This document shows positions 1-39,930 of a stretch of DNA of 64,000 bases, piece by piece. The stretch is from positions 13,550-77,549 of the forward strand of contig DATFMP010000022.1 in the NCBI GenBank assembly GCA_035266845.1, given 5' to 3'. The notes under the pieces are model-generated. The model did not search any database. It was not told the origin of the DNA and worked only from the letters and a program-made list of their open reading frames with translations. Source of the stretch: a bacterium (GTDB lineage Bacteria > SAR324 > JACQKK01). Within the stretch, counting starts at the first letter, position 1. Every line of letters starts with the position of its first letter. A program made the position numbers and the translations under genes.

Positions 1-395
1 TGGTCGTTCTCCATGGGCATGCGCCGGGGCGGCAGCAGCACGGCGCCGCACGCGCCGCACTTCTTGCGATCCAGCGCGGCAGGATCGTCCACCATGTTGC
101 GCTTTCGACACGACGGGCAAATGAGGATATATTGGGTGCGCACCACGGGCGGCTGGAAGCCCAGCGCCGGGTGCGGCGGCTCCAGTTGCCGGTCGTAATC
201 GCGCCGGGCCTCCGGATTGCCCAGCACGCTGAAGGCCTCGTTGATGGCCTGCGCGTCGGCCTCGGTGCCGCCCAGATCCGGGTGGTTGCGGGCCGTCTTG
301 AGCAGGGCGCGGTAAGCCCCCTGGATCACTGCCTGGGAGGCGTAGCGATCCACCTGGAGCACATCGTAATAGGTCTTCTGCCGGCCGTGGTTCAT
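1..395 (-). CDS. J-domain (DnaJ-like) protein with C-terminal CxxC...CxxC zinc-ribbon; partial, its 3' end lies beyond the window start
   Basis: Manual reverse translation from the ATG at complement 395..393 gives MNHGRQKTYYDVLQVDRYASQAVIQGAYRALLKTARNHPDLGG...CPSCRK...CGACG. It has the HPD tripeptide and a typical J-domain helix II/III pattern. It is not in the ORF track because it has no in-window stop. Confidence 0.75.
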   Translation of the reverse strand, partial: MNHGRQKTYYDVLQVDRYASQAVIQGAYRALLKTARNHPDLGGTEADAQAINEAFSVLGNPEARRDYDRQLEPPHPALGFQPPVVRTQYILICPSCRKRNMVDDPAALDRKKCGACGAVLLPPRRMPMEND

Positions 396-467
396 GGCGG
401 GACCCGCCCCCGGGGACTGCCTGCGGTGTACGGCGTGCAGTGTAAACCGAATCGCCCCGGATCGTCC

Positions 468-1172
468 ATGCTGCACAGAGACGAGCGCCCGGGCCGCACG
501 CCGGCACCGCGAAGGGCCCCGCTTTCGGCCTCGGACATCAATCCGTACACCCAGTGGGTGCACGAGCACCCGCTCGTGCTGCTGGCCGAGCCCACACCGG
601 CGGCCCTGCACGAGCGCCTGGCCGCGCGCAAGGGGCCGATCGTGGTGGATCTCGGCTGCGGCTCGGGCAACTTCCTGCTGGAGCGCGCGGGCCGCGAGCC
701 CGGCACGCGCTTCGTGGGCTTCGAGCTGCGCTACAAGCGGCTGGTGAAGGCGGCGCGCAAGGTGGAGCGGGTCGACCTGGACAACGTGTGGTTCCTGCGC
801 GAGACGGCGGAGCGCCTGGAGGCCTACTTCGCGCCGGGCAGCCTGCGGGCCTTGCACGTGAACTTCCCCGATCCCTGGCCGCGCCGCTCGGACTGGCGCC
901 ACCGCATGGTCAACGCGGCGCTGCTGCGCAGCCTGGAGCACCTGCTGGAGCCCGGGGGGCACTTCTTCCTGAAGACCGACCATTCGGGATATTTCTTGCA
1001 TGTCCTCTCGCTGGTGCAGGATGTGCCAGGATTGCGCCTGGCGGCATTCAGCAACGATCATCATCGCCACGCGGCCAGTCGTGGCGAGGCACGCACGGAG
1101 TTCGAGCAGCTCTTTCACGCGCAGCGCAAACCCGTGTACAGCCTCGCCCTGCAGCGGCCCGCCGCCGGGTAG
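468..1172 (+). CDS. trmB: tRNA (guanine46-N7)-methyltransferase
   Basis: Motifs VVDLGCGSGNFLLERA and FPDPWPKRS-like (FPDPWPRRSDW); ~234 aa counted from the internal ATG at 468. The upstream part of the ORF frame is antisense to the J-domain gene. Confidence 0.9.
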   Translation: MLHRDERPGRTPAPRRAPLSASDINPYTQWVHEHPLVLLAEPTPAALHERLAARKGPIVVDLGCGSGNFLLERAGREPGTRFVGFELRYKRLVKAARKVERVDLDNVWFLRETAERLEAYFAPGSLRALHVNFPDPWPRRSDWRHRMVNAALLRSLEHLLEPGGHFFLKTDHSGYFLHVLSLVQDVPGLRLAAFSNDHHRHAASRGEARTEFEQLFHAQRKPVYSLALQRPAAG

Positions 1173-1213
1173 ACCGCAGGCCCGACCTGGCCCGCACGAT
1201 TCGGACCCGCCCC

Positions 1214-3688
1214 GTGCCGATCGCTCCGTCACCGCTTCCCGCTTCGTCCTCCCGCCCATTCCGGACGCTGAGCCGGGCCGTGCTGCTGGTAGCCGCGGCG
1301 CTGCTGCTGGCGCCCGCGGCCGGGCTGGCGCAGAAGGTGCCGCCCTCGCTGCTGCGGCAGGAGGCAGCGCTGAAGCTGCCCCAGGCCGCGGGGGCCGTGG
1401 CCATCAGCGCGGATGAATCCATGCTGGCCGCAGCCTTGCCGGCGGGCCGGGGCCGCTGGCGCGTGCAACTGTACGACCGCCCCAGCCACGGCAGGCTGGG
1501 CCTGATCGAGGCCAAGGTGGGCGCCGACCCGCGCCTGCGCTTCTCCCCCGTGAGCGACCTGCTGCTGGTGGCGGGCAGCGATGCGCTGCAGTTGTGGGAG
1601 CTGCCCATCGGGCCCATGGAGCCCAATAAGCCGCTCGGCCCCGAACACCGCCGCTGGGAGGTGAAGCTCTCTGAGCCGGCCGGCCAGGTGCGCTTCGGCA
1701 CGCCGCCGGACATGGTGTACTGGAGCAAGGGCGCGGCGCTGTATCGCCGCAGCGTGCAGACGGGCGTGCCCTTCGACGGCAAGCCACTGTGGGAGCCATT
1801 GCACGACTCCCAACCGATCACGGACTTCGCCTTCGATCCCCAGAGCGCGCTGCTGGCACTGGTCTATCGCCAGAGCAAGGCCATCGGCCTGCTGGACCTG
1901 AACCACGCGCAACTGCTGCGCAGCCTGCAGGGGCACCGCTTCCCGGTGGTCGCGGCGCGCTTTTCCGATCAGCGGCCGCTGCTCTCCCTGGATGCCGGCA
2001 ACGACCTGATCCAGTGGCAGAACAATGCGCAGCCCGTGGCCACGATGTTCCTGGATCAGGTTCCGTCGGACTTTCACGCAGCCGGCTTCACGGCGCTGGG
2101 CGATCACCACCTGCTGCTGGAAGCGCGGGATGGCCGCGCGCTGGCCATCGAGGAGCGCACCGCGCGGCCTGTGGCGGAACTGCGGGCGGACGGCCCGCAG
2201 CGCATCGCGGTCAGCCCCACCGGGCGCTACGTGCTGGCGGCGGAAGGTCAGATGCTGCGCATCTATGGCTTCGCCCAGCCCAGCTCGCCGCTGGCCTACG
2301 TGCGGCACCTGCGGCGGCTGAAGGCCTATGACATGGCGCAGAGCTACGTGCGCCTGATGGATGACCGCGGCATCTCTCCGCAACTTCGTGCGGACCTGCT
2401 CAACGAGGCCAGCCGCGAGCCTCCGGGCCAGGAGCTGCAGGCGGCCCTGGCGCGCATGAAGGAGGCCGTGCAGGAGAGCGACGCAGACCGCATCCGCTAC
2501 TGGGCCGAGCAGGTGCTGAGCCTACAGCCGGGGCAGCCGGACGCCAGCGCCGCCCTGCGCGCCCTGCGCGAGCAGCAGGATGCGCGGACCCTGGACCAGG
2601 CCCGCGACGCCTACCAGGTGGGGCAGTACCGCGTGGCGATCTCGCTGCTCTCCAACCAGATCCAGGACGACAGCCGCTTCTATCCCGACGCGTTGGAGCT
2701 GATCCGGCAGGCCGAGGCCCGCCGCTCAGTGGAAACCGCGCTCATCCAGGCCCGCGAGAAGCTGAACCTGAGCGACTTCCCGGCCGCGGAGGCGCTGGTG
2801 CAGGAGGCGCTGCGCAAGGAGCCGGGAAACCGGGCCGCGCAGGCCCTGCAGGACGAGATCGACGACCGCTCCGGGGCCACCGAACGCCAAATCAAGGCGG
2901 CCTTGATCGGCCTCAGCATCGCCTCGCTGCTGGTGGGCTTCGTGGCTATGCGCTACCGGCGCCGGCTTGGCCCGCTGATGCGCAAACTGCGCCTGGACGA
3001 GCAGGATGAGCGATCGGGGCCGTTCGCCCGGGGCGCGGCACGGCCCCATGCCGAGCCGCACCGCGCGGCCGAGCCTCGCCAGCCCGAACCGGAGCGTCCA
3101 CCGCCCCGGCCCCATGCCGCCACGGCGGCGCGCCGCAAGGTGATCGAGGCGCTCATCAAGGAGACGGACGAGCGCATCCAGCGCCTGCGCATGGCGGACC
3201 ACTATGGGCAGCACACCGCGCGCCTGATGGAACTGGAAGCCGAGCTGAACGCCATCCAGCGCCGGCTGGTGGATCCCTCCGTCGAACTGGGGCCACTGCA
3301 CAACCGTCTTCGCGCCATCGACGCCCAAGTGCGGAGCCTGCGCATCGAGCCCCGCCGCGGCCCGCAGCAGGAGGAGCGGCAGCGGCACGCCGGACAAGCG
3401 GGCACCGGGCAGGCGGCCCTACCGGGGGGCCAGAACGGCGAGCCGACGCACTACGAAGTGCTGGAGCTCACGCCAGAGGCCTCCCTGGAGCAGATCAAGG
3501 CCGCCTATCACAAGCTGCTCAAGCAGTATCACCCGGACCTGCACAACGCTTCCCAGTTCGCGTGGGTGCGGGCCGAATCCGAGCGCATGAGCCGCCGCAT
3601 CGCCCTGGCCTACCAAGTGCTGAGCGACGACGCGGCCCGCGCGCGCTATGATCACGAACTGCGCAATCGCAAGGGACCTGGCCGATGA
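1214..3688 (+). CDS. large membrane-anchored J-domain protein: signal/anchor peptide, periplasmic beta-propeller-like and TPR-like region, one TM helix, coiled coil, C-terminal J-domain
   Basis: Signal-like segment RAVLLVAAALLLAPAAGLA-QK; repeated LxxWxL / hydrophobic-strand blocks; TM AALIGLSIASLLVGFVAMRYRRR; C-terminal HYEVLELTPEASLEQIKAAYHKLLKQYHPDL (HPD present). The start is uncertain: GTG at 1214 or 1280 is possible and there is no ATG in frame after the trmB stop. The stop overlaps the yicC start (ATGA). Confidence 0.7.
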   Translation: MPIAPSPLPASSSRPFRTLSRAVLLVAAALLLAPAAGLAQKVPPSLLRQEAALKLPQAAGAVAISADESMLAAALPAGRGRWRVQLYDRPSHGRLGLIEAKVGADPRLRFSPVSDLLLVAGSDALQLWELPIGPMEPNKPLGPEHRRWEVKLSEPAGQVRFGTPPDMVYWSKGAALYRRSVQTGVPFDGKPLWEPLHDSQPITDFAFDPQSALLALVYRQSKAIGLLDLNHAQLLRSLQGHRFPVVAARFSDQRPLLSLDAGNDLIQWQNNAQPVATMFLDQVPSDFHAAGFTALGDHHLLLEARDGRALAIEERTARPVAELRADGPQRIAVSPTGRYVLAAEGQMLRIYGFAQPSSPLAYVRHLRRLKAYDMAQSYVRLMDDRGISPQLRADLLNEASREPPGQELQAALARMKEAVQESDADRIRYWAEQVLSLQPGQPDASAALRALREQQDARTLDQARDAYQVGQYRVAISLLSNQIQDDSRFYPDALELIRQAEARRSVETALIQAREKLNLSDFPAAEALVQEALRKEPGNRAAQALQDEIDDRSGATERQIKAALIGLSIASLLVGFVAMRYRRRLGPLMRKLRLDEQDERSGPFARGAARPHAEPHRAAEPRQPEPERPPPRPHAATAARRKVIEALIKETDERIQRLRMADHYGQHTARLMELEAELNAIQRRLVDPSVELGPLHNRLRAIDAQVRSLRIEPRRGPQQEERQRHAGQAGTGQAALPGGQNGEPTHYEVLELTPEASLEQIKAAYHKLLKQYHPDLHNASQFAWVRAESERMSRRIALAYQVLSDDAARARYDHELRNRKGPGR

Positions 3689-4563
3689 TTCGTTCCATGA
3701 CTGGCTTTGGCCAGGCAGAAACCTCCTCCGGCGGCTGGCGCTGCACGGCGGAACTGCGCTCGGTGAACGGGCGCTATCTCGATGTCCGCCTGCGGCTGCC
3801 GTCCGGGCTCACGCAACTGGAAGAGCCCCTGCGCAAGCAGATCAAGGCGGTCTGCGAGCGAGGCAAGATCGACGGCACCATCAACCTTTCGGCCGAGGAG
3901 GGCGGCCGGCCCACGTTGGCCATCAACCGGCCGCTGCTGGAAGGCTATCGCGCCGTGTTGGACGAGATTGCGGAGGTGCTGGGCCAGCCCGTGCGCGTGA
4001 CTCTGAGCGACCTGCTGGCCAACCGGGAACTGATCCAGCAGCAGTCCTGGGAGCAGCAGGCCGAACAGGTGCAGGCCCTCGTGCACGAGACCTTGCAGGC
4101 CGCCCTGGCCGGCCTGCTGACCATGCGCGAGACGGAGGGCAACGCGCTCAAGGCCACGCTGCTGGAGCATGCGGCCAACCTGGAGCGCATGGTGGACGAG
4201 GCCAAGCCGCTCACCGCCGATGTGCCCGCACAGTACGCGCGGCGCCTGCGGGAGAACCTGGCGCGACTTTCCGACGGCCCCATGCCCGCGGAGGATCGCA
4301 TCCTGCAAGAGATTTCGCTGTTCGCCGACCGCTGCGACGTCACCGAGGAGTTCGCGCGGCTGTACACGCACCTGGAGCACCTGCGTCAACTGCTGGAGCA
4401 GGGCGGCCCGGTTGGGCGCAAGTTCGAGTTCCTGCTGCAGGAACTGAATCGCGAGACGAACACGCTGGGCACCAAGAGCAGCGAAGCGCAGGTGAGTGCG
4501 CTCATCGTGGAGATGAAGTCCGAGATCGAGAAGCTGCGCGAGCAGGTGCAGAACATCGAATAG
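3685..4563 (+). CDS. yicC: YicC-family stress-induced protein (RNase YicC)
   Basis: Protein begins MIRSMTGFGQAE and ends with a DUF1732-like C-terminus LQELNRETNTLGTKS; ~292 aa. Confidence 0.9.
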   Translation: MIRSMTGFGQAETSSGGWRCTAELRSVNGRYLDVRLRLPSGLTQLEEPLRKQIKAVCERGKIDGTINLSAEEGGRPTLAINRPLLEGYRAVLDEIAEVLGQPVRVTLSDLLANRELIQQQSWEQQAEQVQALVHETLQAALAGLLTMRETEGNALKATLLEHAANLERMVDEAKPLTADVPAQYARRLRENLARLSDGPMPAEDRILQEISLFADRCDVTEEFARLYTHLEHLRQLLEQGGPVGRKFEFLLQELNRETNTLGTKSSEAQVSALIVEMKSEIEKLREQVQNIE

Positions 4564-4661
4564 CGGCGCGCAAGCAGGGCGGGCCATGACCCGGGGGCAA
4601 CCGTTGCGCGCGGCGTTGATTTTGACGCAGGCGAAATGCAGGCAGGAGGCGTTCGACGTCC

Positions 4662-5474
4662 ATGGCCAATCGAGTTTTCATCGTGTCCGGTCCCTCGGGA
4701 GTGGGCAAGTCGTCCATCATCCGCGAGGTGCTGGCGCGGCGGCCGAGCGTGCACACGACCGTCTCCACCACCACGCGGCCCCCGCGGCCCGGGGAGCAGG
4801 ATGGCGTCGCCTACCATTTCGTGGACACGGCCACCTTTGAGCGCATGATAGCCGCGGGAGACTTCCTGGAGTGGGCGCGCAGCTACGACCACTACTACGG
4901 CACGGGGCTACACGAGATCGAACGCATCCACGTCGCAGGCTGCGATGCGCTGCTGGATATCGACACGCAGGGGGCCCTCACCATACAGGGCGCCTATACC
5001 GGAGCGGTGTACGTCTTCGTCAAGCCGCCCGACCTAGCCTCTCTGGAGGCCCGCCTGCGCGGCCGCGACACGGAAAGCGAGGCCGTGCTGCGCAAGCGCT
5101 TGGCGCGGGCGGAGCAGGAGATCAGTCACGCGGACCGCTACGACTATGTGGTGGTCAACCGTGTCGTGGACGACGCGGTGCGAGAGTTCCTCGCCATCAT
5201 TGACCGGGAAAAGGAGCGTCCCGTGCCATTCGCCAAGATCGGCAACACCCCAACCATCTCCACAGACGCCGTCACCGCGGCGGCGGACAAGGCCACCCGC
5301 TACGCCTTGGAGCGCATCGACCGCGAGGTGCTGGTGCAGTCTCTGGAGGCCGAAGTGAAGACGGCCTTGCGCGGCGAGCTGGAAGGCCTCATCCGCGAGC
5401 GCCTGGAGCGCGTGCTGCGCAACGACCTGCCCCGGATCGTCAAAGAGGCCTACCGGCAGGCCGCCGAGCGCTAG
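4662..5474 (+). CDS. gmk: guanylate kinase with ~75 aa C-terminal coiled-coil extension
   Basis: P-loop SGPSGVGKSS and GMP-binding TTRPPRPGEQDGVAYHFV; it extends well beyond the usual Gmk C-terminus. Confidence 0.9.
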   Translation: MANRVFIVSGPSGVGKSSIIREVLARRPSVHTTVSTTTRPPRPGEQDGVAYHFVDTATFERMIAAGDFLEWARSYDHYYGTGLHEIERIHVAGCDALLDIDTQGALTIQGAYTGAVYVFVKPPDLASLEARLRGRDTESEAVLRKRLARAEQEISHADRYDYVVVNRVVDDAVREFLAIIDREKERPVPFAKIGNTPTISTDAVTAAADKATRYALERIDREVLVQSLEAEVKTALRGELEGLIRERLERVLRNDLPRIVKEAYRQAAER

Positions 5475-5734
5475 CGCATCAGCCGCAGTAGCCCGGTCAC
5501 GCCATGCCAAGCGGGAATCCTCGGCCGCTCCGGCCCCGGGCGATACCCCTGCCTGGCGTCTTCACACCGGCCGATGCTGCCATCCGGCGTCTGCGGCGTG
5601 CATTGCCGCGTGGATTCGCGTAAAATCGGGGAGCAGGCGTTCGCTCGTGGGCCTTGGGGGCTCACACGGAGGGGGCGCGTGCGTCCGGACGGCTGGGGAG
5701 CGAGGCGCCGTCCGCACCTCTGCGACGATCGTCC

Positions 5735-7885
5735 ATGCTGCGCTTCGATGACCTGCAGGCCAAGGTGGCATCCTACATGCCGCCCGACGACGATCTGGAA
5801 GCGATCAGCCGCGCCTACGTCTACTCCGCCACGCTGCACCGCAACCGTTTCAACCACAACGGCGAGCTCGCCCTGCAGCACGCGCTGGAGGTGAGCAACA
5901 TCCTGGCCGAGCTGCGCTTGGACCTGCGCTGCATCGTGGCCGGACTGCTGCACGACGCGCTGGAGGACGAGCTGGCGGAGCCGGGCGCCCTGCGCGCCGC
6001 GGTAGGCGAGGAGTCGGCGCGGCTGGTGGAAGAGATGTCCCGCCTCAGCCGGGCCGCCTTCCACGGCACGGAGGCCGCGCGGGCCGAGCACATGCGCCAG
6101 ATGATCCTGGCCAGCACGCGCGACCTGCGCGTGATCCTGATCCTGCTGGCGGACCGCCTGCAACTGCTCCGCAATCCCGCGCAGATCCCGGACGAAGCGC
6201 AACACGCCCTGGCGCGAGAGACGCTGGCCATCTATGCGCCCATTGCGCACCGGCTGGGTATCCATACCTTCAAGGCGGAGCTGGAGGACCGCGCCTGGCG
6301 CATCCTGGAGCCCGCCGCCATGGCGGAGCTGCAGGCGCGCGTGGGTGCGCGTCTGGCCGAGCGCAGCGCGCGCATCGAGCAGATCAACGCCGAGCTGCGC
6401 GAGCTGCTGGAGGCCAACGGGATGAAGGGCGAGGTGCTGGGGCGCACCAAGCACTTGTACTCGATCCACCAGAAGATGCTGCGCGACCGCATCGACCTGG
6501 AGCGCGTCTACGACCTGCTGGCCTCGCGGATTATCGTGGATACGACCGAGGAGTGCTACCGGGTGCTGGGGCTGGTGCACGCCACCTACACGCCCATGCC
6601 CGGGCGCTTCAAGGATTACATCGCGCTTCCCAAGGACAACGGCTACCAGTCCCTGCACACGATCGTGTTCGGCAGCAGCGGGGACATCTTCGAGATCCAG
6701 ATCCGCACCCGTGAGATGCACAGCCAGGCCGAGATGGGCATCGCGGCACACTTCATCTACAAGGACGGCGCCGCGCCGGACGAGAACGAGTTGGCATCGG
6801 TGAGCTGGTTCCGGCGCCTGCTGGAGCACCTGGAGCAGGGCCTCGACCCCTACGAATCCATGGAGTTGCTCCAGCGCGATCTGGCGCCCGAACAGCTATT
6901 CGTGTTCACGCCGCGTGGGGAGGTGATCAAGCTGCCACCCAACGCCACGGCGATCGACTTCGCTTACGGAATCCACTCCGAGGTGGGGCACCGCTGCGTG
7001 GGGGCCCGTATGGACGGGCGCATGGTTTCCATCCGCACGCCGCTCAAGAACGGCAGCGTGGTGGAAATCGTGACCGCCAAGACCCAGGAGCCCAAGGAGG
7101 ACTGGCTCAAGTCCGCCGTCAGCTCCAAGGCTCTGGGGCATATCCGGCGCTACCTGAGCCGCAAGATGAAGGAGGAGGCCATCACCGCGGGGCAGGAGCA
7201 CGTGCAGCGCGAGGCCAAGCCCTACGTGCGCAAGACGGAGGAGTTGTTCCGGCTGGAGCCCTTCCGCCAGTGGATGCAGCGCCACGGCTACCACAACCCG
7301 GACGACGTCTACGCCGCCGAAGGCTTCGGGCGCATCACCATCCACGATGTGCTGGAGCGCGTGCTGCCTCGCGCGGAGCCCGCGGCCAAGGCCCCGGCCG
7401 CACCCGCCAGGAGCGCGCGCAAGGAGGTCGCCAAGCCCCGGCAGGTGGTGACCATCGCCGGACTGGACAACATGATGATTCGGTTCGCCAAGTGCTGCAC
7501 GCCGGTGCACGGGGACCCGGTGGTGGGCATCATCACACGCGGCCGCGGCGTTTCCATCCACCACCGAAACTGCCCCAACCTAGCGCGGCAGTTCATCCAC
7601 GAAGAGCGGATGGTGGAAGTGGACTGGGCGGAGGATACCGCGCGCGGGCGTCCGGTAACGCTCGCCATCAGCACGCGCAGCTCGATGAAGGACCTGCTGG
7701 AATCGATCAGCTTTCTCGAGGCCGAAGGCACCCCCATCACCTCAGGCCGCATCGCCTCCCGCCACGGGGTCTATACTCAACACCTGACCCTGATGGTGAG
7801 CGACTCCAAGCAGCTCAAGCGCATCCTTCAGCGGCTGAACGCCATCGCGGGCATTCGTGCCGAGCGCGTGCTGGAGTCGGCGTAG
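5735..7885 (+). CDS. relA: bifunctional (p)ppGpp synthetase/hydrolase RelA/SpoT (RSH)
   Basis: HD domain HDALED; synthetase region YSIHQKMLRDRIDLERVYDLLASRIIV...YQSLHTIVFG...FEIQIRTREMH; TGS/ACT C-terminal region; ATG at 5735. Confidence 0.9.
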   Translation: MLRFDDLQAKVASYMPPDDDLEAISRAYVYSATLHRNRFNHNGELALQHALEVSNILAELRLDLRCIVAGLLHDALEDELAEPGALRAAVGEESARLVEEMSRLSRAAFHGTEAARAEHMRQMILASTRDLRVILILLADRLQLLRNPAQIPDEAQHALARETLAIYAPIAHRLGIHTFKAELEDRAWRILEPAAMAELQARVGARLAERSARIEQINAELRELLEANGMKGEVLGRTKHLYSIHQKMLRDRIDLERVYDLLASRIIVDTTEECYRVLGLVHATYTPMPGRFKDYIALPKDNGYQSLHTIVFGSSGDIFEIQIRTREMHSQAEMGIAAHFIYKDGAAPDENELASVSWFRRLLEHLEQGLDPYESMELLQRDLAPEQLFVFTPRGEVIKLPPNATAIDFAYGIHSEVGHRCVGARMDGRMVSIRTPLKNGSVVEIVTAKTQEPKEDWLKSAVSSKALGHIRRYLSRKMKEEAITAGQEHVQREAKPYVRKTEELFRLEPFRQWMQRHGYHNPDDVYAAEGFGRITIHDVLERVLPRAEPAAKAPAAPARSARKEVAKPRQVVTIAGLDNMMIRFAKCCTPVHGDPVVGIITRGRGVSIHHRNCPNLARQFIHEERMVEVDWAEDTARGRPVTLAISTRSSMKDLLESISFLEAEGTPITSGRIASRHGVYTQHLTLMVSDSKQLKRILQRLNAIAGIRAERVLESA

Positions 7886-8088
7886 GCGATCCGCATCGCA
7901 TCGCCGTCGACGCTCTCCTGGTAGACTTCGCGCATCACCTCGACCACCACGATCTCCTCGATGGAGCGCGCCTTGTTCGACAGGATGTCGAAGGCCCGCG
8001 TCATCGGCACGTCGTGATCGATCAGTTGCTCCAACTGCTTCCCGATCCTGCGAACGGTTTGGCGGATCATAAGCATCTCCCTCATCAA
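7828..8088 (-). CDS. hypothetical small protein (~80 aa), convergent with and overlapping the relA 3' end
   Basis: Protein-like composition (MIRQTVRRIGKQLEQLIDHDVPMTRAFDILSNKARSIEEIVVVEVMREVYQ) and GC3-rich codons, unlike surrounding spurious frames. I do not recognise the family. Confidence 0.4.
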   Translation of the reverse strand: MMREMLMIRQTVRRIGKQLEQLIDHDVPMTRAFDILSNKARSIEEIVVVEVMREVYQESVDGDAMRIAYADSSTRSARMPAMAFSR

Positions 8089-8316
8089 CGCGACTCCTCT
8101 CGTCCATGATTATGAGCCTCGGCCAGCCGCAGCCGGCCGGATGATAGACGTTGACGCCACCCTTTCATGCAGGATCGGGGCCACACGCCACAAAGCGGTG
8201 GCAGAGCTGCCTGGGGAGGGGTGAGGGAAAGTGTTGGGGCTGCGGTGCGCGACCCAGAACAGGCCGCGCCACGGAGTGTCCGGCGGAGCGGCCGGGAAAG
8301 CCGCCCTGCTGGGGCA

Positions 8317-8691
8317 CTAGCTCTGCTTGAACTTGGAGAGGTCGACCACGAAGCGCTCGTGCGTGCCGTCGCCGATGGTGTCCTCGCCGTGGGTCACCTT
8401 GACCTCGAACAACAGCTTGCGGCGGTCGCGCTCCAGCAGCTTGCAGGCGATCTTCACGTCCTTGCCGATGGGCACGGCGGCGCGGTGCCAGATGTGCACC
8501 ATGGTGCCCACCGTGCTCTCGTTGTCGTCCAGGTGGGGCTGAACCGATTCCAGACAGGTTTGCTCCATCAGTCCGATCATGGACGGCGTGGAGAGGACGC
8601 CCGGGCCGGGGCCCAGGTGCGCCACGCCCATGGCCGGCGTGGTGGTCACGGTCTTCTCATGGGCGATGCCCGGGGCCAGCGAATCCTTCAT
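8317..8691 (-). CDS. hotdog-fold acyl-CoA thioesterase (fluoroacetyl-CoA thioesterase-like)
   Basis: GIAHEKTVTTTPAMGVAHLGPG...VLSTPSMIGLMEQTC, typical of the YbgC/FlK hotdog family; 124 aa. Confidence 0.8.
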   Translation of the reverse strand: MKDSLAPGIAHEKTVTTTPAMGVAHLGPGPGVLSTPSMIGLMEQTCLESVQPHLDDNESTVGTMVHIWHRAAVPIGKDVKIACKLLERDRRKLLFEVKVTHGEDTIGDGTHERFVVDLSKFKQS

Positions 8692-8945
8692 GGCGGGTGC
8701 GTGCTCCAGCGCTAGGGGTGGTTGCCCATGCCGAGTGCGGGGCAGGGGCCGAAGATCACGGTTTTTGCATTCCCCTTCAGCATCCGCAACGTGCCTCGGG
8801 GGGCCAGGGCCGGCGTGGCCGATCGTGCCAGCGCCACCACCCTACCCGATGTGACGCGGCCCGCGCCAGCGAAGGTGCGGGTGCAGGAGGGGGCTGCCTC
8901 CGGTGGCGGAGCCGGACGCCCCGGCACGTGGGAAAGGAGCCCACC

Positions 8946-9135
8946 CATGGAAGACAGAACCTTCGTCAATCGGCCGTTCCTGCGGGTGTACTTCGAGTGC
9001 TGCAGCGTGTACCAGCGCATCTATCGCGATCCGCACGGCCATGCCTACTCAGGCCGCTGCCCGCGCTGTCTGCGCCCGATCCGCTTCAAGGTGGGGCCCA
9101 ACGGGACGCCCGCACGCGACTTCACCGTACGCTAG
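8946..9135 (+). CDS. small zinc-ribbon protein (63 aa, CC...CxxC)
   Basis: MEDRTFVNRPFLRVYFECCSVYQRIYRDPHGHAYSGRCPRCLRPIRFKV. It has a coding-like composition and sits divergent from the thioesterase. Confidence 0.4.
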
Positions 9136-9205
9136 TGCGGTGTGCCGCAAGTAAGTTCAAGACTCGCCGGCATGTCTGGCACTGTCAGGGGCACCGCCCC
9201 TGACC

Positions 9206-9301
9206 ACCCCGCCAAGAGCCCTTGGAACCCGTTTTCGCGGCAGTGGCTGGATCGCCAGCCACTGCCGCCCAAACAGGGGGTTTGGGGGAACGTGTTCCCC
9301 C
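9206..9301. repeat. intergenic palindromic element, copy 1: 12-bp perfect palindrome GGCAGTGGCTGG-ATCG-CCAGCCACTGCC followed by conserved CAGGGGGTTTGGGGGAAC-GT-GTTCCCCC hairpin
   Basis: Shares a 28-nt core with the reverse strand of 23669-23700; both copies lie in convergent gene junctions. Confidence 0.5.
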
Positions 9302-9332
9302 GAATTCTTCCCCGCATCTTTGGAACGCCGCA

Positions 9333-10814
9333 CTAGACGGCGGTATTCCCGGCTGCGGCGGTGACCAGGGCCCGGAAGCGCTCGCCGCGCACCTTGTAGT
9401 TGGGGAACATATCGAAGCTGGCGCAGGCGGGGCTGAACAGCAGCACACCGCCCCCCGCCACGGCCTGGCGCGCCGCGGCGAACGCCGCCTCCAGGCTCTC
9501 GGCGCGCACCACTGGCGGTGTGGCCCGACCCAGGCGCGCGGCCGCCGCGGCCAGCTCCGCCGCAAGGCGCGGCGCCGTGGTGCCGATCAGCACCAGCCGG
9601 TGCAGCGTGGGATGCCGGCACAGCGCCTCGGCTAGCGGCGCGAAGTCCGCGTGCTTCTCCGAGCCCCCGGCGATGAGCGCCAGCGGCACGTCCTCGAAGG
9701 CCGAGAGCGCCCCCAGGGTGGCATCCGGCCGCGTGGCGTAGGAATCGTTGTAGCAGCGCACGCCATCCAGCTCCCCCACCGGCTCCAGGCGGTGCGGCAG
9801 ACCGCCGAAAGCCGCGATGGCTGCGGCCGCCGCGTCCAGCTCCGCGCCCAGCGCCTCCGCCGCCAGAAAGGCCGCCGCGGCGTTCTCCAGGTTGAAGGCG
9901 CCCGGCAGCGCCAAGTGCTCCAGCGGCTCCAGCCGCTCCGACCGGCCGCCCCGGTAGCGGTACACGCGTCCGTCCGCCACGCCGATGCCGTCCGTGACCG
10001 GACCACCGCGGCTGAAGGCCAGCGCGCCCGGCAGGCGCGCTCCCACTACCTCGCAACTCCCGGCGCTGTCCGCGCAGTAGATGACGCGCTGGGCGACCGC
10101 CCCGGCCTCGTCCAGCCCTGCCAGCAGGCCTCGTTTGGCGGCGCGGTACTCGGTCACGTCGCGGTGCCAGTCCAGGTGCTCGCTGGTGGTGCGCAACACG
10201 ACGGCCACTTCCGGCTTGCGTCCCTCCAGCCCCATAAGCTGGAAGCTGGACAGCTCCAGCACGGTCACCGTCTCGGGCGTCAGCTCGTCCAGCACGGCCA
10301 AGGGATTGAGCCCGATATTGCCCGCCGCGCGGCAGGGGACGCCGGCCCGCAGCAGCGCCGCCTCGATCAGGCTCACGGTGGTACCCTTGCCCAGCGTGCC
10401 GGTCACGCCCGCCACAGGGCCCGGGCAGGCCGCCAGGAACAGCGCCGTGGCGGAGGTGATCCGCGCTCCCGCAACCCGCGCGGCCGCCAGCGCGGGCTGA
10501 TCCGGCCGCACGCCCGGGCTGCGCACCACGGTGCCGCAGGCCGCCAGCGCCGTGCGCCAGTCGCCCTCTCCGTGTACGGGCAGGTCGGCCAGCGCCGGGT
10601 CTTCGTCCGCCGCAGCGGGGGTCAGGGCGCGGTCGAACACAGCCAGTTCTTCCACGCCATGGGCCCGCAGGAAGCGCAGCGACGCCCGGCCCTCCACGCC
10701 GTAGCCCACGATGCCCACCGGCCGCGGCAGCTCCGCGACCAGTTCCGCCGCCGGGCGCACCGCCTGGCCGGAAGCCCGACTAAGCCGCCGCTGTCCGGGC
10801 ATAGCCCTCCGCAT
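9333..10814 (-). CDS. murD: UDP-N-acetylmuramoylalanine--D-glutamate ligase (Mur ligase family)
   Basis: N-terminal Rossmann VGIVGYGVEG; P-loop VTGTLGKGTT; PHRLE; C-terminal SPACASFDMFPNYKVRGERF, characteristic of MurD. Confidence 0.85.
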   Translation of the reverse strand: MRRAMPGQRRLSRASGQAVRPAAELVAELPRPVGIVGYGVEGRASLRFLRAHGVEELAVFDRALTPAAADEDPALADLPVHGEGDWRTALAACGTVVRSPGVRPDQPALAAARVAGARITSATALFLAACPGPVAGVTGTLGKGTTVSLIEAALLRAGVPCRAAGNIGLNPLAVLDELTPETVTVLELSSFQLMGLEGRKPEVAVVLRTTSEHLDWHRDVTEYRAAKRGLLAGLDEAGAVAQRVIYCADSAGSCEVVGARLPGALAFSRGGPVTDGIGVADGRVYRYRGGRSERLEPLEHLALPGAFNLENAAAAFLAAEALGAELDAAAAAIAAFGGLPHRLEPVGELDGVRCYNDSYATRPDATLGALSAFEDVPLALIAGGSEKHADFAPLAEALCRHPTLHRLVLIGTTAPRLAAELAAAAARLGRATPPVVRAESLEAAFAAARQAVAGGGVLLFSPACASFDMFPNYKVRGERFRALVTAAAGNTAV

Positions 10815-11946
10815 CGGCTAGGCGCGCCACGGCAGGCCGCAACGCCTCCGGCACGAAGCCGGGCCTGGCGTGGATGTACTCGGGGTACAGGGTGAGGCGC
10901 TCGCGCAGGGTGTAGCCCACCTCCGCGCTGCGCCGGGCCAGCTCGGCGATCTGCGGCCAGGGCGCCTCGGGATTGATGTGGTCCGGCGTGACCGGCGAGA
11001 CGCCGCCCCAGTCGTTGATGCCCGCCAGCAGCAGCAGCGGGTAGCTCTCCGGCGACAGATTGGGCGGTGCCTGCAGGTTCATCTCGCCCCCCAGCAGCAG
11101 CCGCGCCACGGCGATGGTGCGCAGCAGGTCGGTCAGGGGCGGGTCGGGCCAGTCCGCCATGGGAATGCCCGCCTTGGCGCGGAAGTTCTGTACGATTACC
11201 TCCTGGATGTGCCCGTAGCGTGCGTGCAGGTCACGCACGGTGAGCAGCGTCTGCACACGCTCGGCGGGCGTCTCGCCGATGCCGATCAGCAGGCCGGTGG
11301 TGAAGGGGAAGCGCAGCTCGCCCGCGAAGCGCAGGTTGGCGATGCGGGCGCCGGGCGCCTTGTCCGGGGCGTGTGCGTGGGGCATGCCGGGAGCCCGCAA
11401 CCGGGGCGTGAGGTTCTCCAGCATGATGCCCATGCTGCCGCTGGTGCCGCGCAGCGCGGCCATCTCGCGGCGGCTCAGCGTGCCCGGGTTGGGGTGCGGC
11501 AGCAGTCCGGTCTCCGCCAGCACTGCGCGGCACATTTCCGCCAGGTAGCCGGTGGTGCTCTCGAAGCCCAGTCCGCGCAGCTCCGTCGCCACCTGCGCGA
11601 AGCGCACCTCAGGCTTGTCGCCCAGGCTGAACAGCGCCTCCTTGCAGCCCACCGCCGCCCCGGCCCGCGCGATGGCCAGTACCTCGTCGGGCGTCAGGTA
11701 GCGGGCGCCGGGCTGGCCGGGGTCGCGCTTGAAGGTGCAGTAGCCGCAGTCGTCGCGGCAGTAGGTGGTGAGCGGGATGAACACCTTGCGCGAGTAAGTC
11801 ACCACGCGCCCCTTGTGCGCCTCGCGCAGCTCGGCGGCGGCCTGCATCAACTCCAGCAGGGCCGCGCCCTGGGCCCCAAGCAGTGCCGTGGCCTCCTCGG
11901 CCGTGAGGCCGCCCTGCTGGGCTCGGGTCAGCAGCTCGGTGGGCAT
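10780..11946 (-). CDS. cofG: radical SAM 7,8-didemethyl-8-hydroxy-5-deazariboflavin (FO) synthase subunit CofG / FbiC N-terminal half homolog
   Basis: VTYSRKVFIPLTTYCRDDCGYCTF matches the CofG/FbiC CxxxCxxC region almost exactly; 388 aa; overlaps the murD start by 35 nt. Confidence 0.75.
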   Translation of the reverse strand: MPTELLTRAQQGGLTAEEATALLGAQGAALLELMQAAAELREAHKGRVVTYSRKVFIPLTTYCRDDCGYCTFKRDPGQPGARYLTPDEVLAIARAGAAVGCKEALFSLGDKPEVRFAQVATELRGLGFESTTGYLAEMCRAVLAETGLLPHPNPGTLSRREMAALRGTSGSMGIMLENLTPRLRAPGMPHAHAPDKAPGARIANLRFAGELRFPFTTGLLIGIGETPAERVQTLLTVRDLHARYGHIQEVIVQNFRAKAGIPMADWPDPPLTDLLRTIAVARLLLGGEMNLQAPPNLSPESYPLLLLAGINDWGGVSPVTPDHINPEAPWPQIAELARRSAEVGYTLRERLTLYPEYIHARPGFVPEALRPAVARLADAEGYARTAAA

Positions 11947-12082
11947 GGCGGTCCGTGGCGACGATCGGTGGCGGGCAGCATCCGCAGATCTCTCGGATCA
12001 CATCGATTCAGACGACCAGCAGACACCGCCGTCCGCCTGGATGCAAGCGGCGCTAACCCCGCAGCCGGCCGGCACACCCGCC

Positions 12083-13789
12083 TCAATCCTGCCGGATCGG
12101 GCGCCCGATGCGCCGCTCCACGATGCGCGTCACGGCCGAGGCATCGTCCTCGCCGTAGCCCGCCGCCAGGGCTTCCTCCAGCAGCCCACGCGCCGCGTCG
12201 TGGATGGGCGTGGGCACGCCCGTGCCCGCGAAGAAGGCCTTGGCGAGCTGGCTGTCCTTGTGCGCCAGCTTCAGCTTGAAGCGCGGCGAGAAGTCGCCCT
12301 TGATGATGGTGGGCACCTTGCGGTCGAAGTAGTTACCGAAGGCCATGCCCCCCCCGTTGCGCACCACCTCGTAGAAGGTCTGCAGGTTCACGCCGTTCTG
12401 TGCGCACAGCGCCAGGGCCTCGGCCACGGCGGCGTAGTTCACGGCACCCAGGGCGTTGTGCAGCAGCTTGACCTTGTTGGCCGTGGCGGCCGGGCCCACG
12501 TAGATGTACTTGCGGCCCGCCAGTTCCAGGTACGGCGTGATCCGATCCAGGTGCGCGCGCTGGCCGCCCAGCATGTAGAACACTTGCCCCGCCTCCGCCT
12601 GCGGCTTGGAGCCCAGCATGGGCCCCGTGAAGTGGTGGACGCCCTTGGCGCGCAGCTCGGCATCCAGCGCGTCCGTGAACTCCGGGCTGACCGTGGACAG
12701 GTCGCAGGTCACCGTGCCCGCGCGCAACACCGGCATCATGCCGGCCTCGCCCCGGAACACGGCATTCACCGCCGAGTCGTCGGGCAGGCAGGTCAGGATC
12801 ACCTGGCAGCGCTCGGCCAGGGCGCGCGGGGATTCCGCCACTTCCACGTTGGCCTGCTTCGCCGCCTCGCGCATGGCCGCGGGGTTCGCATCGTAGACCA
12901 GCACGGACTTGCCCGACTTCGCCAGGTTCAGCGCCTGGGGCAGGCCCATCGTGCCCAGCCCAATGAAGCCCACCCGTTCCTCTGCGACCGGGGGCTTGCG
13001 GGCCGCCATGCGCCCCGTGATGCCGCGCATGGGCAGGGCTCGCTTGGCAGGCGCCCGCTTGGGCGCGGCGGCCCGGACGCTTGCCTTGGGCGCCGCCTTG
13101 GCCCCTGCTGTGCGCTTGGGTGCGGCTTTGGCCGTGGGGCGCTTGGCCGTCGTTGCCCGCTTGGGGGCCGCTTTCGTCACAGTGGCTCGCTTGGGTGCAG
13201 CTTTGGCGGCAGTGGCACGCTTGGCCGGGGGTTTTGCGGCACCGCGCTTGGCCGCCGTGGCACGCGCGACGGGCTTCGCGGCAGCCTTGGCAGGGGTGCC
13301 GCGCTTGGGCGCAGCCTTGGCGGCCTTAACAGCAGGGCCTTTGGGCGCCGCCTTGGTGGCTGTGGCCCGCTTCGGTGCCGCTTTGGCGGCAGAGACCCGC
13401 TTGGCCGCGGGTTTTGCAGCCCCGCGCTTGGCGGTCGTCGCACGCGCGGCGGGCTTCACGGCACCCTTGGCAGGGGTGCCGCGCTTGGGTGTCGTCTTGG
13501 CCGTGGCGCGCTTGGGTGCGGCCTTCGCGGCCGTCCGCTGGGTCGCCGCCTTGGCGGTGGCTCGTTTGGGCACCGCCTTGGCGATGGCGGGCTTGCGTGC
13601 TGGCGCAGCCTTGCTCGCTGCCGTCCGTTTCGCCGCCGGCTTGCGGGCAGGAGCGGCCTTGCTCGCCGTGCGCTTGGCTGCAGGCTTCGCCGCGGACTTG
13701 CGGGCCGCAGGTTTTCGGGCAGCCGGTTTGGCTGCGGCAGGCCGCGTCTTGCGGTCCGCATTGGTGCGGGCTTTCGAGTTGGTAGCCAC
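12083..13789 (-). CDS. fusion protein: N-terminal ~250 aa K/A/P-rich histone-H1-like (AlgP/Hc1-like) repeat domain plus C-terminal NAD(P)-dependent beta-hydroxyacid dehydrogenase (HIBADH/6PGDH family)
   Basis: C-terminal FIGLGTMGLPQALNL, GTVTCDLSTVSP and LAHKDSQLA motifs. The N-terminus is AAKPAAKR/AAPKRAT repeats in frame with no stop. A GTG start at 13789 is preceded by a GAGGAG Shine-Dalgarno 7 nt upstream. Confidence 0.8.
   Translation of the reverse strand: MATNSKARTNADRKTRPAAAKPAARKPAARKSAAKPAAKRTASKAAPARKPAAKRTAASKAAPARKPAIAKAVPKRATAKAATQRTAAKAAPKRATAKTTPKRGTPAKGAVKPAARATTAKRGAAKPAAKRVSAAKAAPKRATATKAAPKGPAVKAAKAAPKRGTPAKAAAKPVARATAAKRGAAKPPAKRATAAKAAPKRATVTKAAPKRATTAKRPTAKAAPKRTAGAKAAPKASVRAAAPKRAPAKRALPMRGITGRMAARKPPVAEERVGFIGLGTMGLPQALNLAKSGKSVLVYDANPAAMREAAKQANVEVAESPRALAERCQVILTCLPDDSAVNAVFRGEAGMMPVLRAGTVTCDLSTVSPEFTDALDAELRAKGVHHFTGPMLGSKPQAEAGQVFYMLGGQRAHLDRITPYLELAGRKYIYVGPAATANKVKLLHNALGAVNYAAVAEALALCAQNGVNLQTFYEVVRNGGGMAFGNYFDRKVPTIIKGDFSPRFKLKLAHKDSQLAKAFFAGTGVPTPIHDAARGLLEEALAAGYGEDDASAVTRIVERRIGRPIRQD
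13200..13505 (-). repeat. ~180 bp tandem direct repeat (2 units, ~85% identical) encoding the repeated K/A/P-rich segment
   Basis: 13201-13325 aligns to 13381-13505 (ctttggcggcag...gccttggcaggggtgccgcgcttggg). Confidence 0.6.
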
Positions 13790-13850
13790 GTCCGCTTCTC
13801 CTCAAGGTACGCAGGGTCCACTGTCCCGGCACCACCACGGGCACGCAGGA

Positions 13851-14627
13851 CTAGCGGAACAGGTCCATCTCCGGGGCGCGGATGAGCGCCTGGCCGCCCG
13901 CGCCCGCGCTGGCCTGACCCTGAGGCCAGGGCCAGCCACGGATCACGGCCGCGGGCACGCGCCCGGTTTTGCCGCAGACGAGGTCCGCAGCGCAGGCCAG
14001 CTCGTCCGCCACGGCGATAATGGTCGCGTGCAGGGTGCGCCCATCCACGTCCGGCGATTCGCGATAGTCCACCAGCGGCGCCAGCCCGGCCACGCCCAGG
14101 GCCACCTGGGTGAGACCCACACGCCAGGGCCGCCCGAAGGTATCCGCCACGATCACGGCCACGTCCGCCCCCGTGCCCGCGCGCAGGGCCTCGCGCAGGG
14201 CACGCGCCGAACGGTCGGAGTCCTCCGGCAGCAGGATCGCCACCTCGCTGCCGTCGCCCGCGCCGGCGTTGGAGAGGTCCACACCAGCGTTGGCGCAGAT
14301 AAAGCCATGGTGCGTCTCGGTGATCAGCACGCCCCGTTCCATGCGCACCACGCGGCGGCTCTCCCGCAGCACCAGCTCGATCAGCCGCGGGTCCTTGCCC
14401 CAGCGCTGGGCCCAGGTGCGGGCGTGGGGCGAGGGCTCCACGCCGGCCAGGGCCACCCGCGAGCCTTCGGCTTTGGAAACAACCTTCTGCGCAATCACCA
14501 GCACGTCGCCATCGGCCAGGACGGGCCCCCGATCGCGCAGGACAGCCAGCAGGAGGCCTCCCAGGTCGTCCCCGGGGTGAATCTCCGGCAGGCCCTCCAC
14601 GGGATGGACGGTCACGGGTGCGGTCAT
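13851..14627 (-). CDS. cofE: coenzyme F420-0:L-glutamate ligase
   Basis: GDVLVIAQKVVSKAEGS and ITETHHGFICANAGVD motifs; 258 aa from the ATG at 14627. The rest of the 715 aa ORF is antisense to trxA/truA. Confidence 0.85.
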   Translation of the reverse strand: MTAPVTVHPVEGLPEIHPGDDLGGLLLAVLRDRGPVLADGDVLVIAQKVVSKAEGSRVALAGVEPSPHARTWAQRWGKDPRLIELVLRESRRVVRMERGVLITETHHGFICANAGVDLSNAGAGDGSEVAILLPEDSDRSARALREALRAGTGADVAVIVADTFGRPWRVGLTQVALGVAGLAPLVDYRESPDVDGRTLHATIIAVADELACAADLVCGKTGRVPAAVIRGWPWPQGQASAGAGGQALIRAPEMDLFR

Positions 14628-14849
14628 GAAGCTCCGGCTCTCGGCGGGGCGCGCTCCCGCCATCCTAAGCATCGCGGGCCGGCCCCGCAACGGGACCCTT
14701 GCCCGGCTCGGTTGCCTGCCTCCCGGTGCGCCAGTATACTGCTCTTTCGGAACCCTGCGCTGCGGCGCGTGGGGGCCGGCGCCCGGGATGGCGCCGCCTC
14801 GCGGCGTCCGCGGCTCCGTCAGTTGCATTCCTAATGGGGTGAACGACTT

Positions 14850-15170
14850 ATGGCAAGCGAAACGGTGGTCAACCTGACCGACGACACGTTCGATTCCGGC
14901 ATCAAGTCCGGCCTGACCCTGGTGGATTTCTGGGCGGAGTGGTGCGCGCCCTGCAAGGCGCTCTCGCCCGCCATCGAGCAGCTCGCGGACGAATTCGGCG
15001 AGAAGCTGCGCGTGGCCAAGGTGGATATCGACTCCAACCCGGGCATCCCTGGCCGCTTCGGCATCCGCGGCATTCCCACCGTGATCCTGTTCAAGGACGG
15101 CACCCAGGTGGACATGTTCGTGGGCAACAGCCCGCAGAAAATCCGCGAGATGGTCGAGCGCGCCGTCTAG
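14850..15170 (+). CDS. trxA: thioredoxin
   Basis: WAEWCAPCK active site; 106 aa. Confidence 0.95.
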   Translation: MASETVVNLTDDTFDSGIKSGLTLVDFWAEWCAPCKALSPAIEQLADEFGEKLRVAKVDIDSNPGIPGRFGIRGIPTVILFKDGTQVDMFVGNSPQKIREMVERAV

Positions 15171-15302
15171 GCCCCTGCCGGGTGGGGCGGCGCTGCCCGC
15201 CTCTCGCGGCATCCGCCGGGCTGGCGTCGACCGGCCCCGGCGCAGGCCTCCTTCTCGCCCCCAGGGCGCGCCCGGTCTTGCACGCGGAGGGCCGGTCCGC
15301 CT

Positions 15303-16193: not shown

Positions 16194-16347
16194 GACGCAC
16201 GGCCTCGGCCCGCCTGCGGCTGCCTCCGACCGCCCCTGGGCCGACGGTTTACGTCGCCACCCGAGACGACTATGCTGGCCGTGGGGCGCATCCGCGCGGC
16301 TGCGGGCCCGGAGGTCCCGCGCCGGCGGCGCAAGGAGAGAGCATTCC

Positions 16348-17232: not shown

Positions 17233-17249
17233 GCCGCGGCCGCCGGGGG

Positions 17250-20328: not shown

Positions 20329-20339
20329 GCGGCAGGGAG

Positions 20340-20780: not shown

Positions 20781-20995
20781 GGCCCCCTCTCCGTAGGCGC
20801 GGTTGAACTGAACCGGGCGGAGGCCAGTGCGGACGCTCAGGCCTTTCCCGCGCCGGGCGGATGGTGCAAGCTGACGGACGCTTGACGAATACCCTGTCGC
20901 GCTTTGACAGATTATGCAATCGGGGGCCCACTCCGGCGCCAACTGCCGCGCCCCGAGGACCCCGCTCCGACCGCAACCCGCACCCTGCCCCACGC

Positions 20996-23650: not shown

Positions 23651-23654
23651 GCGG

Positions 23655-39923: not shown

Positions 39924-39930
39924 CGGCTCC

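Follow-up and report, generated by a model that had tools for sequence, protein, structure and literature searches.

In the 64,000-nucleotide (nt) stretch of contig DATFMP010000022.1 analysed here (the window), which comes from a SAR324 bacterium, we found a gene for an 824-residue J-domain protein (JDP) that is real, conserved and uncharacterised. The encoded protein, which we call the J-protein, combines a predicted exported half, made up of a WD40-like beta-propeller and a TPR-like helical domain, with a single transmembrane helix and a predicted cytoplasmic half that ends in a J-domain. Judged by sequence comparison, it appears to be a new, lineage-restricted variant among membrane-anchored class C J-domain co-chaperones. 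We put at roughly 0.6 the probability that it acts as a membrane-tethered co-chaperone of DnaK, localising DnaK activity to the inner membrane face at positions that would be set by a periplasmic partner.

A single gene with a conserved domain order

The frame of the J-protein is uninterrupted across all 824 codons from the GTG at 1214 to the TGA at 3686–3688, as read from the list of open reading frames (ORFs) and the translation. GC content at third codon positions (GC3) stays at 0.85–0.95 in each 300-nt block throughout, against 0.39–0.59 at second positions (GC2), as a genuine gene should show in a genome of ~70% GC. The GTG start is supported by the many homologues that open with the same residues, MPIAP or MPSAP. 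The deposited record of the protein's own 90% cluster, HKI97348.1, carries the name 'DnaJ domain-containing protein [bacterium]'. A preliminary description of this locus had read it as one gene, running from a signal or anchor segment through an exported beta and TPR-like region and one transmembrane segment to cytoplasmic helices and a J-domain, and both the single gene and the order of its parts stand, the order being kept in every full-length relative that we examined. Its label of a 'giant' protein is overstated for 824 residues.

The predicted exported half

The topology of the J-protein was assigned from a Kyte-Doolittle hydropathy scan, charge counts and signal-peptide heuristics. The scan shows exactly two hydrophobic segments, at residues 18–40 and 560–582, in agreement with the signal and transmembrane segments that had been proposed. 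The first forms part of a predicted signal peptide with a basic n-region (R14, R17 and R21) and a hydrophobic core, AVLLVAAALLLAPAA, of 15 residues broken by a proline, after which GLA immediately precedes Q40 and the sequence continues with QK. The AxA-like junction between GLA and Q is a candidate cleavage site, placed heuristically. The signal-peptide region contains no cysteine, and no lipobox cysteine, so the J-protein is not a lipoprotein.

We built a full-length AlphaFold2 (AF2) model on a 20-sequence family alignment, with a mean predicted local distance difference test score (pLDDT) of 81.8. In this model residues 47–353 are arranged as 28 strands in seven four-stranded blades, mostly at pLDDT >90. 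Foldseek searches of the PDB matched this propeller to PkwA (5yzv; TM-score TMt 0.80, E=4e-14) and also to WDR61, WDR5 and G-beta at E ~1e-14, and a profile of the family retrieved designed WD40 propellers from the PDB at 3e-15 and natural WD40 proteins to 5e-8 (PkwA at 5.5e-8). Scores for the Pfam WD40 family PF00400 in the window protein lay at 16.7–23.2 bits against a 27-bit cutoff, and every Pfam WD40 or propeller match was sub-threshold. Foldseek also returned UTP and IFT proteins, raising a 'protocoatomer-like' combination of propeller and alpha-solenoid; we rejected this likeness as superficial, because the root-mean-square deviation (rmsd) is very high and the propeller alone drives the matches.

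The propeller is followed by helices at residues 359–555 (pLDDT about 90), the final one of which (540–580) runs unbroken into the transmembrane helix in the AF2 model. Pfam matches to TPR families were sub-threshold in the window protein (Fis1_TPR_C at 23.8 bits against a 25.3-bit cutoff; TPR_16, weak, at 16 bits), and relatives of the J-protein passed the thresholds for TPR_14 and TPR_19. A second AF2 model, covering residues 356–824 (pLDDT 81.1), gave P58IPK/DNAJC3 as its best Foldseek match at E=2e-5 with very low TM-scores (0.13–0.15), and BamD and consensus TPR proteins at E 1e-3 to 1e-2, also with low TM-scores (for BamD, a best E of about 2e-3 and TMt of 0.27–0.36). A weak NCBIfam match (9e-4) was to a TPR protein of the Amuc_1098 family, from the outer-membrane part of type IV pili. 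'TPR-like' is, on these models, a safe description of residues 356–558, and together with the WD40-like propeller this domain would make up an exported protein-interaction module. The preliminary description had assigned ~500 residues to repeated beta blocks followed by TPR-like helices. Exported beta blocks and the helices after them are indeed present, but in the AF2 model only ~310 residues are beta and the rest of the ~520-residue periplasmic part is helical.

The predicted membrane segment and cytoplasmic half

The second hydrophobic segment is followed by a cluster of basic residues, with 7 lysines and arginines (K/R) in the 15 residues after the transmembrane helix against 2 before it (counted on P0001, the window protein from a later start). 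By the positive-inside rule, this bias towards the RRRLGPLMRKLRL side would place the C-terminus in the cytoplasm, and the helix is kept at the equivalent position in all full-length relatives. From these features we infer a bitopic inner-membrane protein that would be oriented N-out/C-in after signal-peptide cleavage. The cytoplasm is the sole compartment with Hsp70 and ATP.

Beyond the membrane lies a linker predicted to be disordered, whose length varies among relatives from about 45 to >150 residues, and then a region in which AF2 places helices at residues 633–661, 668–685 and 692–708. The motif of this three-helix region, HTAxLMELEAEL...DP..(E/D)LG..H.RL, consists of residues that are nearly invariant among relatives, and Pfam, NCBIfam and PDB sequence searches gave no family match to it, just sub-threshold coiled-coil noise such as tropomyosin. 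Where a coiled coil had been described, conserved cytoplasmic helices are thus present, but they form a three-helix set without a family match. A second disordered stretch, at residues 714–741 of the AF2 model, separates these helices from the J-domain.

The C-terminal domain is a member of the J-domain superfamily by sequence, HPD motif and fold, as the preliminary description had recognised. PF00226 matches residues 745–813 with E=2.6e-16 and 59.9 bits against a 27.8-bit cutoff, and the HPD motif occupies residues 773–775 (nt 3530–3538). The family profile retrieves J-domains from the PDB at ~1e-16, and the AF2 sub-model superposes in Foldseek on 6rzy with a TMt of 0.93 and an rmsd of 1.5, as it does on further J-domains. 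Helix II is basic (K762, K767 and K770). YHPD is invariant in 22 divergent relatives, and YHPDxH and W784 are invariant across all tiers of relatives described below. The family also shares a specific 6-residue insertion after the HPD, with a signature, YHPDxH..S.F.W (HPDxHxxSxFxW), that is invariant or nearly so. Identity to the J-domain of E. coli DnaJ is approximately 35%, with a 6-residue gap.

Relatives are confined to one lineage

We searched for relatives with a word-indexed search, using the N-terminal 640 residues as query, and with an exhaustive profile search of 1.84 billion representatives. The word-indexed search returned 21 clusters of 789–957 residues and one 509-residue fragment (P0021), all with PF00226, and two of these are named 'SAR324 cluster bacterium'. 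The profile search returned 76 proteins at E<=1e-30, about 40 of them full-length at 750–950 residues. A more distant tier among the 76, of low-GC, lysine-rich relatives (655–745 residues; about 19–25% identity in the periplasmic part and 40–50% in the J-domain) keeps the order of signal peptide, WD40, TPR, transmembrane helix, helices and J-domain and is without the first ~100 residues of the helical domain. At the 50% identity level, about 60–70 clusters share the architecture, the order of which is constant from 70% down to about 19% identity.

Cluster annotations are generic ('DnaJ domain-containing protein [bacterium]', 'J domain-containing protein [Pseudomonadota bacterium]'), and the only taxon names recovered for the architecture are SAR324, Candidatus Lambdaproteobacteria and unclassified bacteria or Proteobacteria. 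Among GTDB species representatives, a full-length relative occurs in just five genomes, which are unclassified metagenome-assembled genomes (MAGs), one groundwater 'Candidatus Lambdaproteobacteria' and one 'SAR324 cluster bacterium'. The family thus appears to be lineage-restricted, with members found only in SAR324/Lambdaproteobacteria-like bacteria.

Across the tiers, the most conserved part is the cytoplasmic helices and J-domain rather than the periplasmic module. The same cytoplasmic helices and J-domain subtype, with the extended post-HPD loop and the conserved tryptophan, recur behind other anchors in shorter proteins that have nothing else in common with the family, namely P0101 and P0112, which have multiple transmembrane segments, and P0088, which has a single N-terminal one, so that the cytoplasmic half looks like a mobile module. 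A separate observation concerns P0062, a 679-residue protein with six HPD motifs at a spacing of ~107–123 residues and six profile-matching stretches, which is apparently an array of six tandem J-domains.

Comparison with known J-proteins

Class A and B DnaJ proteins have an N-terminal J-domain, a G/F region and a beta-sandwich DnaJ_C domain, with a zinc finger in class A. Assignment of the J-protein to these classes was rejected, with its J-domain at the C-terminus, no match to DnaJ_C or DnaJ_CXXCXGXG, and scores far below the cutoffs for TIGR02349 (51.6 vs 377 bits) and CbpA (37.9 vs 403).

Among bacterial class C JDPs, DjlA is similar in having an inner-membrane anchor (here predicted) and a C-terminal cytoplasmic J-domain. 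DjlA family membership was likewise rejected, as NCBIfam PRK09430/NF006948 reached 23.4 bits against a 162-bit cutoff, over residues 740–776 in the J-domain only, and Pfam gave no TerB match. The DjlA-like topology that had been suggested therefore holds loosely, as a predicted membrane anchor with a C-terminal cytoplasmic J-domain, but does not extend to the DjlA family or its TerB domain. DjlA is anchored by a short N-terminal transmembrane segment alone, without a large exported domain, and to our knowledge the studied bacterial membrane J-proteins (DjlA, DjlB/C) have essentially no extracytoplasmic part, unlike the window protein with its predicted periplasmic portion of about 520 residues. 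The central domain of DjlA is a cytoplasmic TerB-type domain, giving a 'TerB-DnaJ' architecture (PMC10410713), and DjlA is described as acting with DnaK at the membrane and as linked to envelope processes (PMC10410713, PMC8215388, PMC11709261).

The J-protein is like P58IPK/DNAJC3 in carrying TPR-type helical repeats and then a C-terminal J-domain, an arrangement counted among the major architectures of class C under the name 'DnaJ-TPR' (PMC10410713). In P58IPK, however, the TPR and J regions are contiguous and share one compartment, whereas here a transmembrane helix lies between them, which would put the repeats in the periplasm and the J-domain in the cytoplasm, and a propeller precedes the repeats; at the very low TM-scores given above, the match of the model appears to reflect a shared parts list and not the overall fold. 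PkwA from Thermomonospora curvata (5yzv) is the best-superposing structure for residues 45–355 (TMt 0.76–0.80, rmsd 3.5–4.1, 18–19% identity). PkwA is a cytoplasmic Ser/Thr kinase that carries its propeller as the C-terminal domain, whereas the propeller of the J-protein is predicted to be exported and has repeats too divergent to reach the Pfam thresholds.

For a possible mode of action, the closest analogies by topology are Pam18/Tim14 of the mitochondrial import motor and DNAJB12/14 of the endoplasmic reticulum (ER) membrane. These proteins are oriented N-out, with a single transmembrane helix and the J-domain inside, such that a far-side domain docks and the J-domain stimulates Hsp70 on the ATP side. 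Unlike the window protein, they have small far-side domains unrelated to WD40 or TPR, and we found no sequence or fold relation beyond the J-domain. Class C JDPs in general are described as targeting factors with protein-interaction domains and transmembrane regions (PMC8215388; PMC10410713), and since they combine with >1,700 different domains (PMC10410713), a new combination is unsurprising in itself. In the literature that we searched, no bacterial J-protein is described that has a WD40/TPR module of large size in the periplasm, and nothing relevant appeared on SAR324 J-proteins.

Gene neighbourhood

The J-gene lies between trmB and yicC, followed by gmk and a relA/spoT-family gene (Table 1), and we compared this order across 12 loci, the window included. 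At 37–44% identity of the J-protein, the order of a divergent J/Zn-ribbon/TPR gene on the minus strand, trmB, the J-gene, yicC, gmk and spoT is identical in 7/7 loci (the window, L001 and L003–L007). L008 (39%) has the order of the window from trmB on and ends before the divergent J gene. L086 (29%) has the window order minus yicC, and L084 and L085 (23–24%) retain trmB, the J-gene and yicC alone, between unrelated outer flanks. In L087, a marine contig (26%), no window neighbour is kept, and a PolyA_pol/CCA-type enzyme, smpB and dprA lie downstream. The most persistent neighbour is trmB, which adjoins the J-gene in 11/12 loci, even where the J-proteins share just 23% identity. The presence of yicC, gmk and spoT is less consistent.

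In the window the ATG of yicC overlaps the TGA of the J-gene within ATGA at 3685–3688, as had been described, and the 4-nt overlap recurs in L001/L002 and L006. The trmB-J-yicC-gmk arrangement suggests co-transcription. For the operon with yicC and gmk that had been proposed, the overlap is real and recurrent, but yicC is missing from L086 and both yicC and gmk from L087, and trmB is the more persistent neighbour. Since every member of the family comes from a single lineage, inheritance of the gene order would suffice to explain the synteny.

The second, divergent J-domain/zinc-ribbon protein noted beyond trmB is likewise present, with a J-domain followed by a zinc ribbon CxxC...CxxC (CPSC...CGAC). 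Its orthologue at L001:2982-4019 (-) is a 345-residue protein with an N-terminal J-domain, a Zn ribbon and cytoplasmic TPR repeats; the copy in L086 (320 residues) has TPR by Pfam, and the gene call in L003 (149 residues) has a DnaJ match alone. This gene accompanies the main J-gene in L086 and in all tier-1 loci long enough to include it, and not in the most distant tier. The relA/spoT relatives with recorded gene calls (L001, L003 and L086) carry HD_4/RelA_SpoT/TGS Pfam matches. The gmk product was observed to have a charged, helical-looking C-terminal extension of about 85 residues beyond its Pfam match, with orthologues of 259–273 residues.

Table 1. Coordinates in the window of the J-gene, the predicted segments of its product and the neighbouring genes.
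Feature	Position	Strand	Residues	Evidence and remarks
J-domain protein gene	1214..3688	+	824 in total	GTG start; TGA stop 3686-3688; bitopic class C (predicted)
Signal peptide (predicted)	1214..1330	+	1-39	Hydropathy peak 18-40; similar N-terminal segments in most relatives
Seven-bladed WD40-like beta-propeller, periplasmic (predicted)	1346..2278	+	about 45-355	AF2, Foldseek, profile
TPR-like helical repeat domain, periplasmic (predicted)	2279..2887	+	about 356-558	AF2, weak Pfam, Foldseek
Single transmembrane helix (predicted)	2891..2959	+	about 560-582	IKAALIGLSIASLLVGFVAMRY, then RRRLGPLMRKLRL; Kyte-Doolittle 2.15, K/R bias
Cytoplasmic linker, Pro/Arg/Glu-rich (predicted disordered)	2960..3109	+		pLDDT <50 at residues 589-632; gap-rich alignment block
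Conserved three-helix region	3110..3337	+	633-708	AF2; near-invariant residues
C-terminal J-domain	3446..3670	+	745-819	Pfam PF00226, PDB, Foldseek
Second J-domain protein, 5' part, divergent	1..395	-		PF00226, 1.1e-11; leaves window edge
trmB (tRNA m7G46 methyltransferase family)	468..1172	+		PF02390, 1.4e-35; ends 41 nt before J-protein start
yicC	3685..4563	+		Pfam YicC-like_N and YicC-like_C, about 1e-41
gmk (guanylate kinase)	4662..5474	+	3-181 of 270 (Pfam match)	PF00625, 1e-47
relA/spoT-family gene	5735..7885	+		ORF; tblastn 46-70% identity to relatives' genes

Other features of the window

The other genes of the window are ordinary chromosomal housekeeping genes, among them those for a Mur ligase, PriA, malate synthase, aspartokinase and M1/M48 peptidases. 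Across positions 1..64000 we detected no tRNA gene and no Rfam family at the gathering threshold, and PADLOC returned no match in the window and hence no sign of a role in defence. Scans for promoters and terminators were uninformative, as terminator-like sites were no more frequent than in shuffled sequence and matches to the sigma-70 consensus are of doubtful value at 70% GC. A 1116-residue ATG-started ORF at 16272..19622 (+; stop to stop 16194..19622) has no Pfam match at 1e-3 and a GC3 of 0.80, below that of its neighbours, and overlaps other candidate ORFs such as 16042..17232. Either it encodes a large protein of a novel kind or it is not a gene.

Proposed mechanism

We propose that a Sec-type signal peptide would export the N-terminal ~520 residues of the J-protein, and that these would form, on the periplasmic side, a seven-bladed WD40-like propeller that stacks on the TPR-like domain. 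Propellers and TPR domains are classic protein-protein interaction scaffolds. The last periplasmic helix would continue straight through the membrane as the single transmembrane helix, leaving in the cytoplasm the C-terminal ~240 residues, which comprise a flexible linker, the three-helix region and the J-domain, whose HPD is intact. J-domains work through HPD-dependent stimulation of Hsp70 ATP hydrolysis, and we infer a partnership in which the J-protein would stimulate ATP hydrolysis by the housekeeping DnaK, encoded elsewhere. DnaK would then be loaded onto clients at the inner membrane face, at places determined by the binding partner of the periplasmic module. The three-helix region could serve in client binding, oligomerisation or regulation of the J-domain. 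No Hsp70 gene turned up when the 64-kb window was scanned for motifs, which excludes for the window a neighbouring dedicated Hsp70 as in the HscC-DjlB/C arrangement and is consistent with use of the housekeeping DnaK.

Several points weigh against this proposal. The predicted topology is built solely from hydropathy, the charge rule and signal-peptide heuristics, and the K/R bias around the transmembrane helix is weak in the most distant tier of relatives. The unusual 6-residue insertion after the HPD might change which Hsp70 is preferred, perhaps in favour of a paralogue of DnaK. The conserved neighbours trmB and yicC are RNA-metabolism genes, a linkage that a co-chaperone model leaves unexplained, and no functional reason to link a tRNA m7G methyltransferase gene to a membrane J-protein is apparent.

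A tether that positions DnaK could also be switched, and the preliminary description had suggested that the protein recruits DnaK in response to the periplasm. Such a regulated sensor would bind a periplasmic ligand or stress signal at its WD40-TPR module and pass it on, through a rigid helix running from the TPR-like domain into the membrane, to the exposure or oligomeric state of the cytoplasmic helices and J-domain, engaging DnaK only on envelope perturbation. The AF2 helix that begins in the final periplasmic repeat and crosses the membrane without a break would suit this, and the conserved cytoplasmic helices beside the J-domain could gate it. The analogy is the input of DjlA and DnaK into the Rcs pathway, and DjlA shows that a JDP of the membrane can feed into a response to envelope stress (PMC11709261). 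However, we detected no PAS, Cache, HAMP or kinase domain in the J-protein, and WD40 and TPR domains are scaffolds rather than sensors of small molecules; the long disordered linker, so variable in length, argues against rigid coupling, and no regulator gene is conserved near the J-gene. That periplasmic sensing regulates DnaK recruitment is plausible, and the data fit a constitutive tether or dock just as well; we consider the sensor possible though doubtful. An assembly or structural factor of the envelope, in which the periplasmic module would be the main actor, for example by scaffolding machinery of the outer membrane or cell wall in the manner of BamB/BamD or TolB/CpoB, and the J-domain an accessory that lends chaperone power to the delivery of precursors or to the protein's own partners at the translocon, strikes us as unlikely. 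Propellers and TPR domains are parts of known periplasmic assembly factors, BamD gave the best Foldseek matches of the TPR-like domain outside JDPs (E about 2e-3 to 1e-2), and the weak Amuc_1098-family match points the same way, but the TMt values for BamD are low and typical of any TPR protein, the propeller is of the WD40 type with 7 blades where BamB has 8 and TolB 6, and it is the cytoplasmic half that is best conserved. More speculative still, and improbable in our estimate, is a trans-envelope coupling in which the WD40-TPR module would capture an envelope or membrane protein that is misassembled or in transit, and the J-domain would trigger DnaK so that this client is pulled, extracted or held at or through the membrane, by analogy with the Pam18/mtHsp70 import motor and DNAJB12-Hsc70 retro-translocation at the ER membrane. 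If true, a cytoplasmic ATP-driven DnaK cycle would act on the ATP-free periplasm, with the three-helix region as the contact to client or translocon; there is as yet no evidence in the data that points to an unusual mechanism.

The gene order could instead mark a shared process in RNA metabolism, in which, for example, a complex for RNA processing or the stringent response (YicC, SpoT) would be chaperoned at the membrane. The persistence of trmB beside the J-gene while the outer flanks differ, the repeated 4-nt overlap with yicC, and the RNA-related genes downstream in L087 (PolyA_pol/CCA-adding enzyme and SmpB), where trmB and yicC are gone, would fit such a tie. Yet those same losses, and that of yicC from L086, speak against it, the order may be simple inheritance within one lineage, Pfam gave no RNA-binding domain in the J-protein, and the periplasmic module has no obvious role in RNA metabolism, all of which makes this a very improbable account. 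The architecture might, finally, be an artefact, an exported propeller/TPR gene and a small membrane J-gene fused by a sequencing or assembly error. The orthologue at L007:6001-8732, in a MAG, is apparently split, with a tblastn match that breaks after query residue 598 and a separate 227-residue C-terminal product (P0059) on record for a contig of equal length (34,384 bp), but the split is probably itself a frameshift or assembly error. The window frame has no stop or frame change and a uniform GC3, and a single ORF of 655–957 residues recurs in dozens of independent assemblies that differ in sample and source, a conservation by which the fused-gene artefact is effectively refuted.

The J-protein is on these grounds a well-defined and testable candidate rather than a demonstrated mechanism, and the membrane-tethered co-chaperone of DnaK is the role that we favour for it. 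SAR324/Lambdaproteobacteria are environmentally abundant and without a genetic model. If our proposal is true, the family would form a direct physical link in these bacteria between the state of the envelope and the cytoplasmic chaperone network. The periplasmic partner, if identified, could show how DnaK comes to be positioned at specific envelope machines, and whether periplasmic or membrane clients are handled in bacteria by a route coupled to Hsp70.

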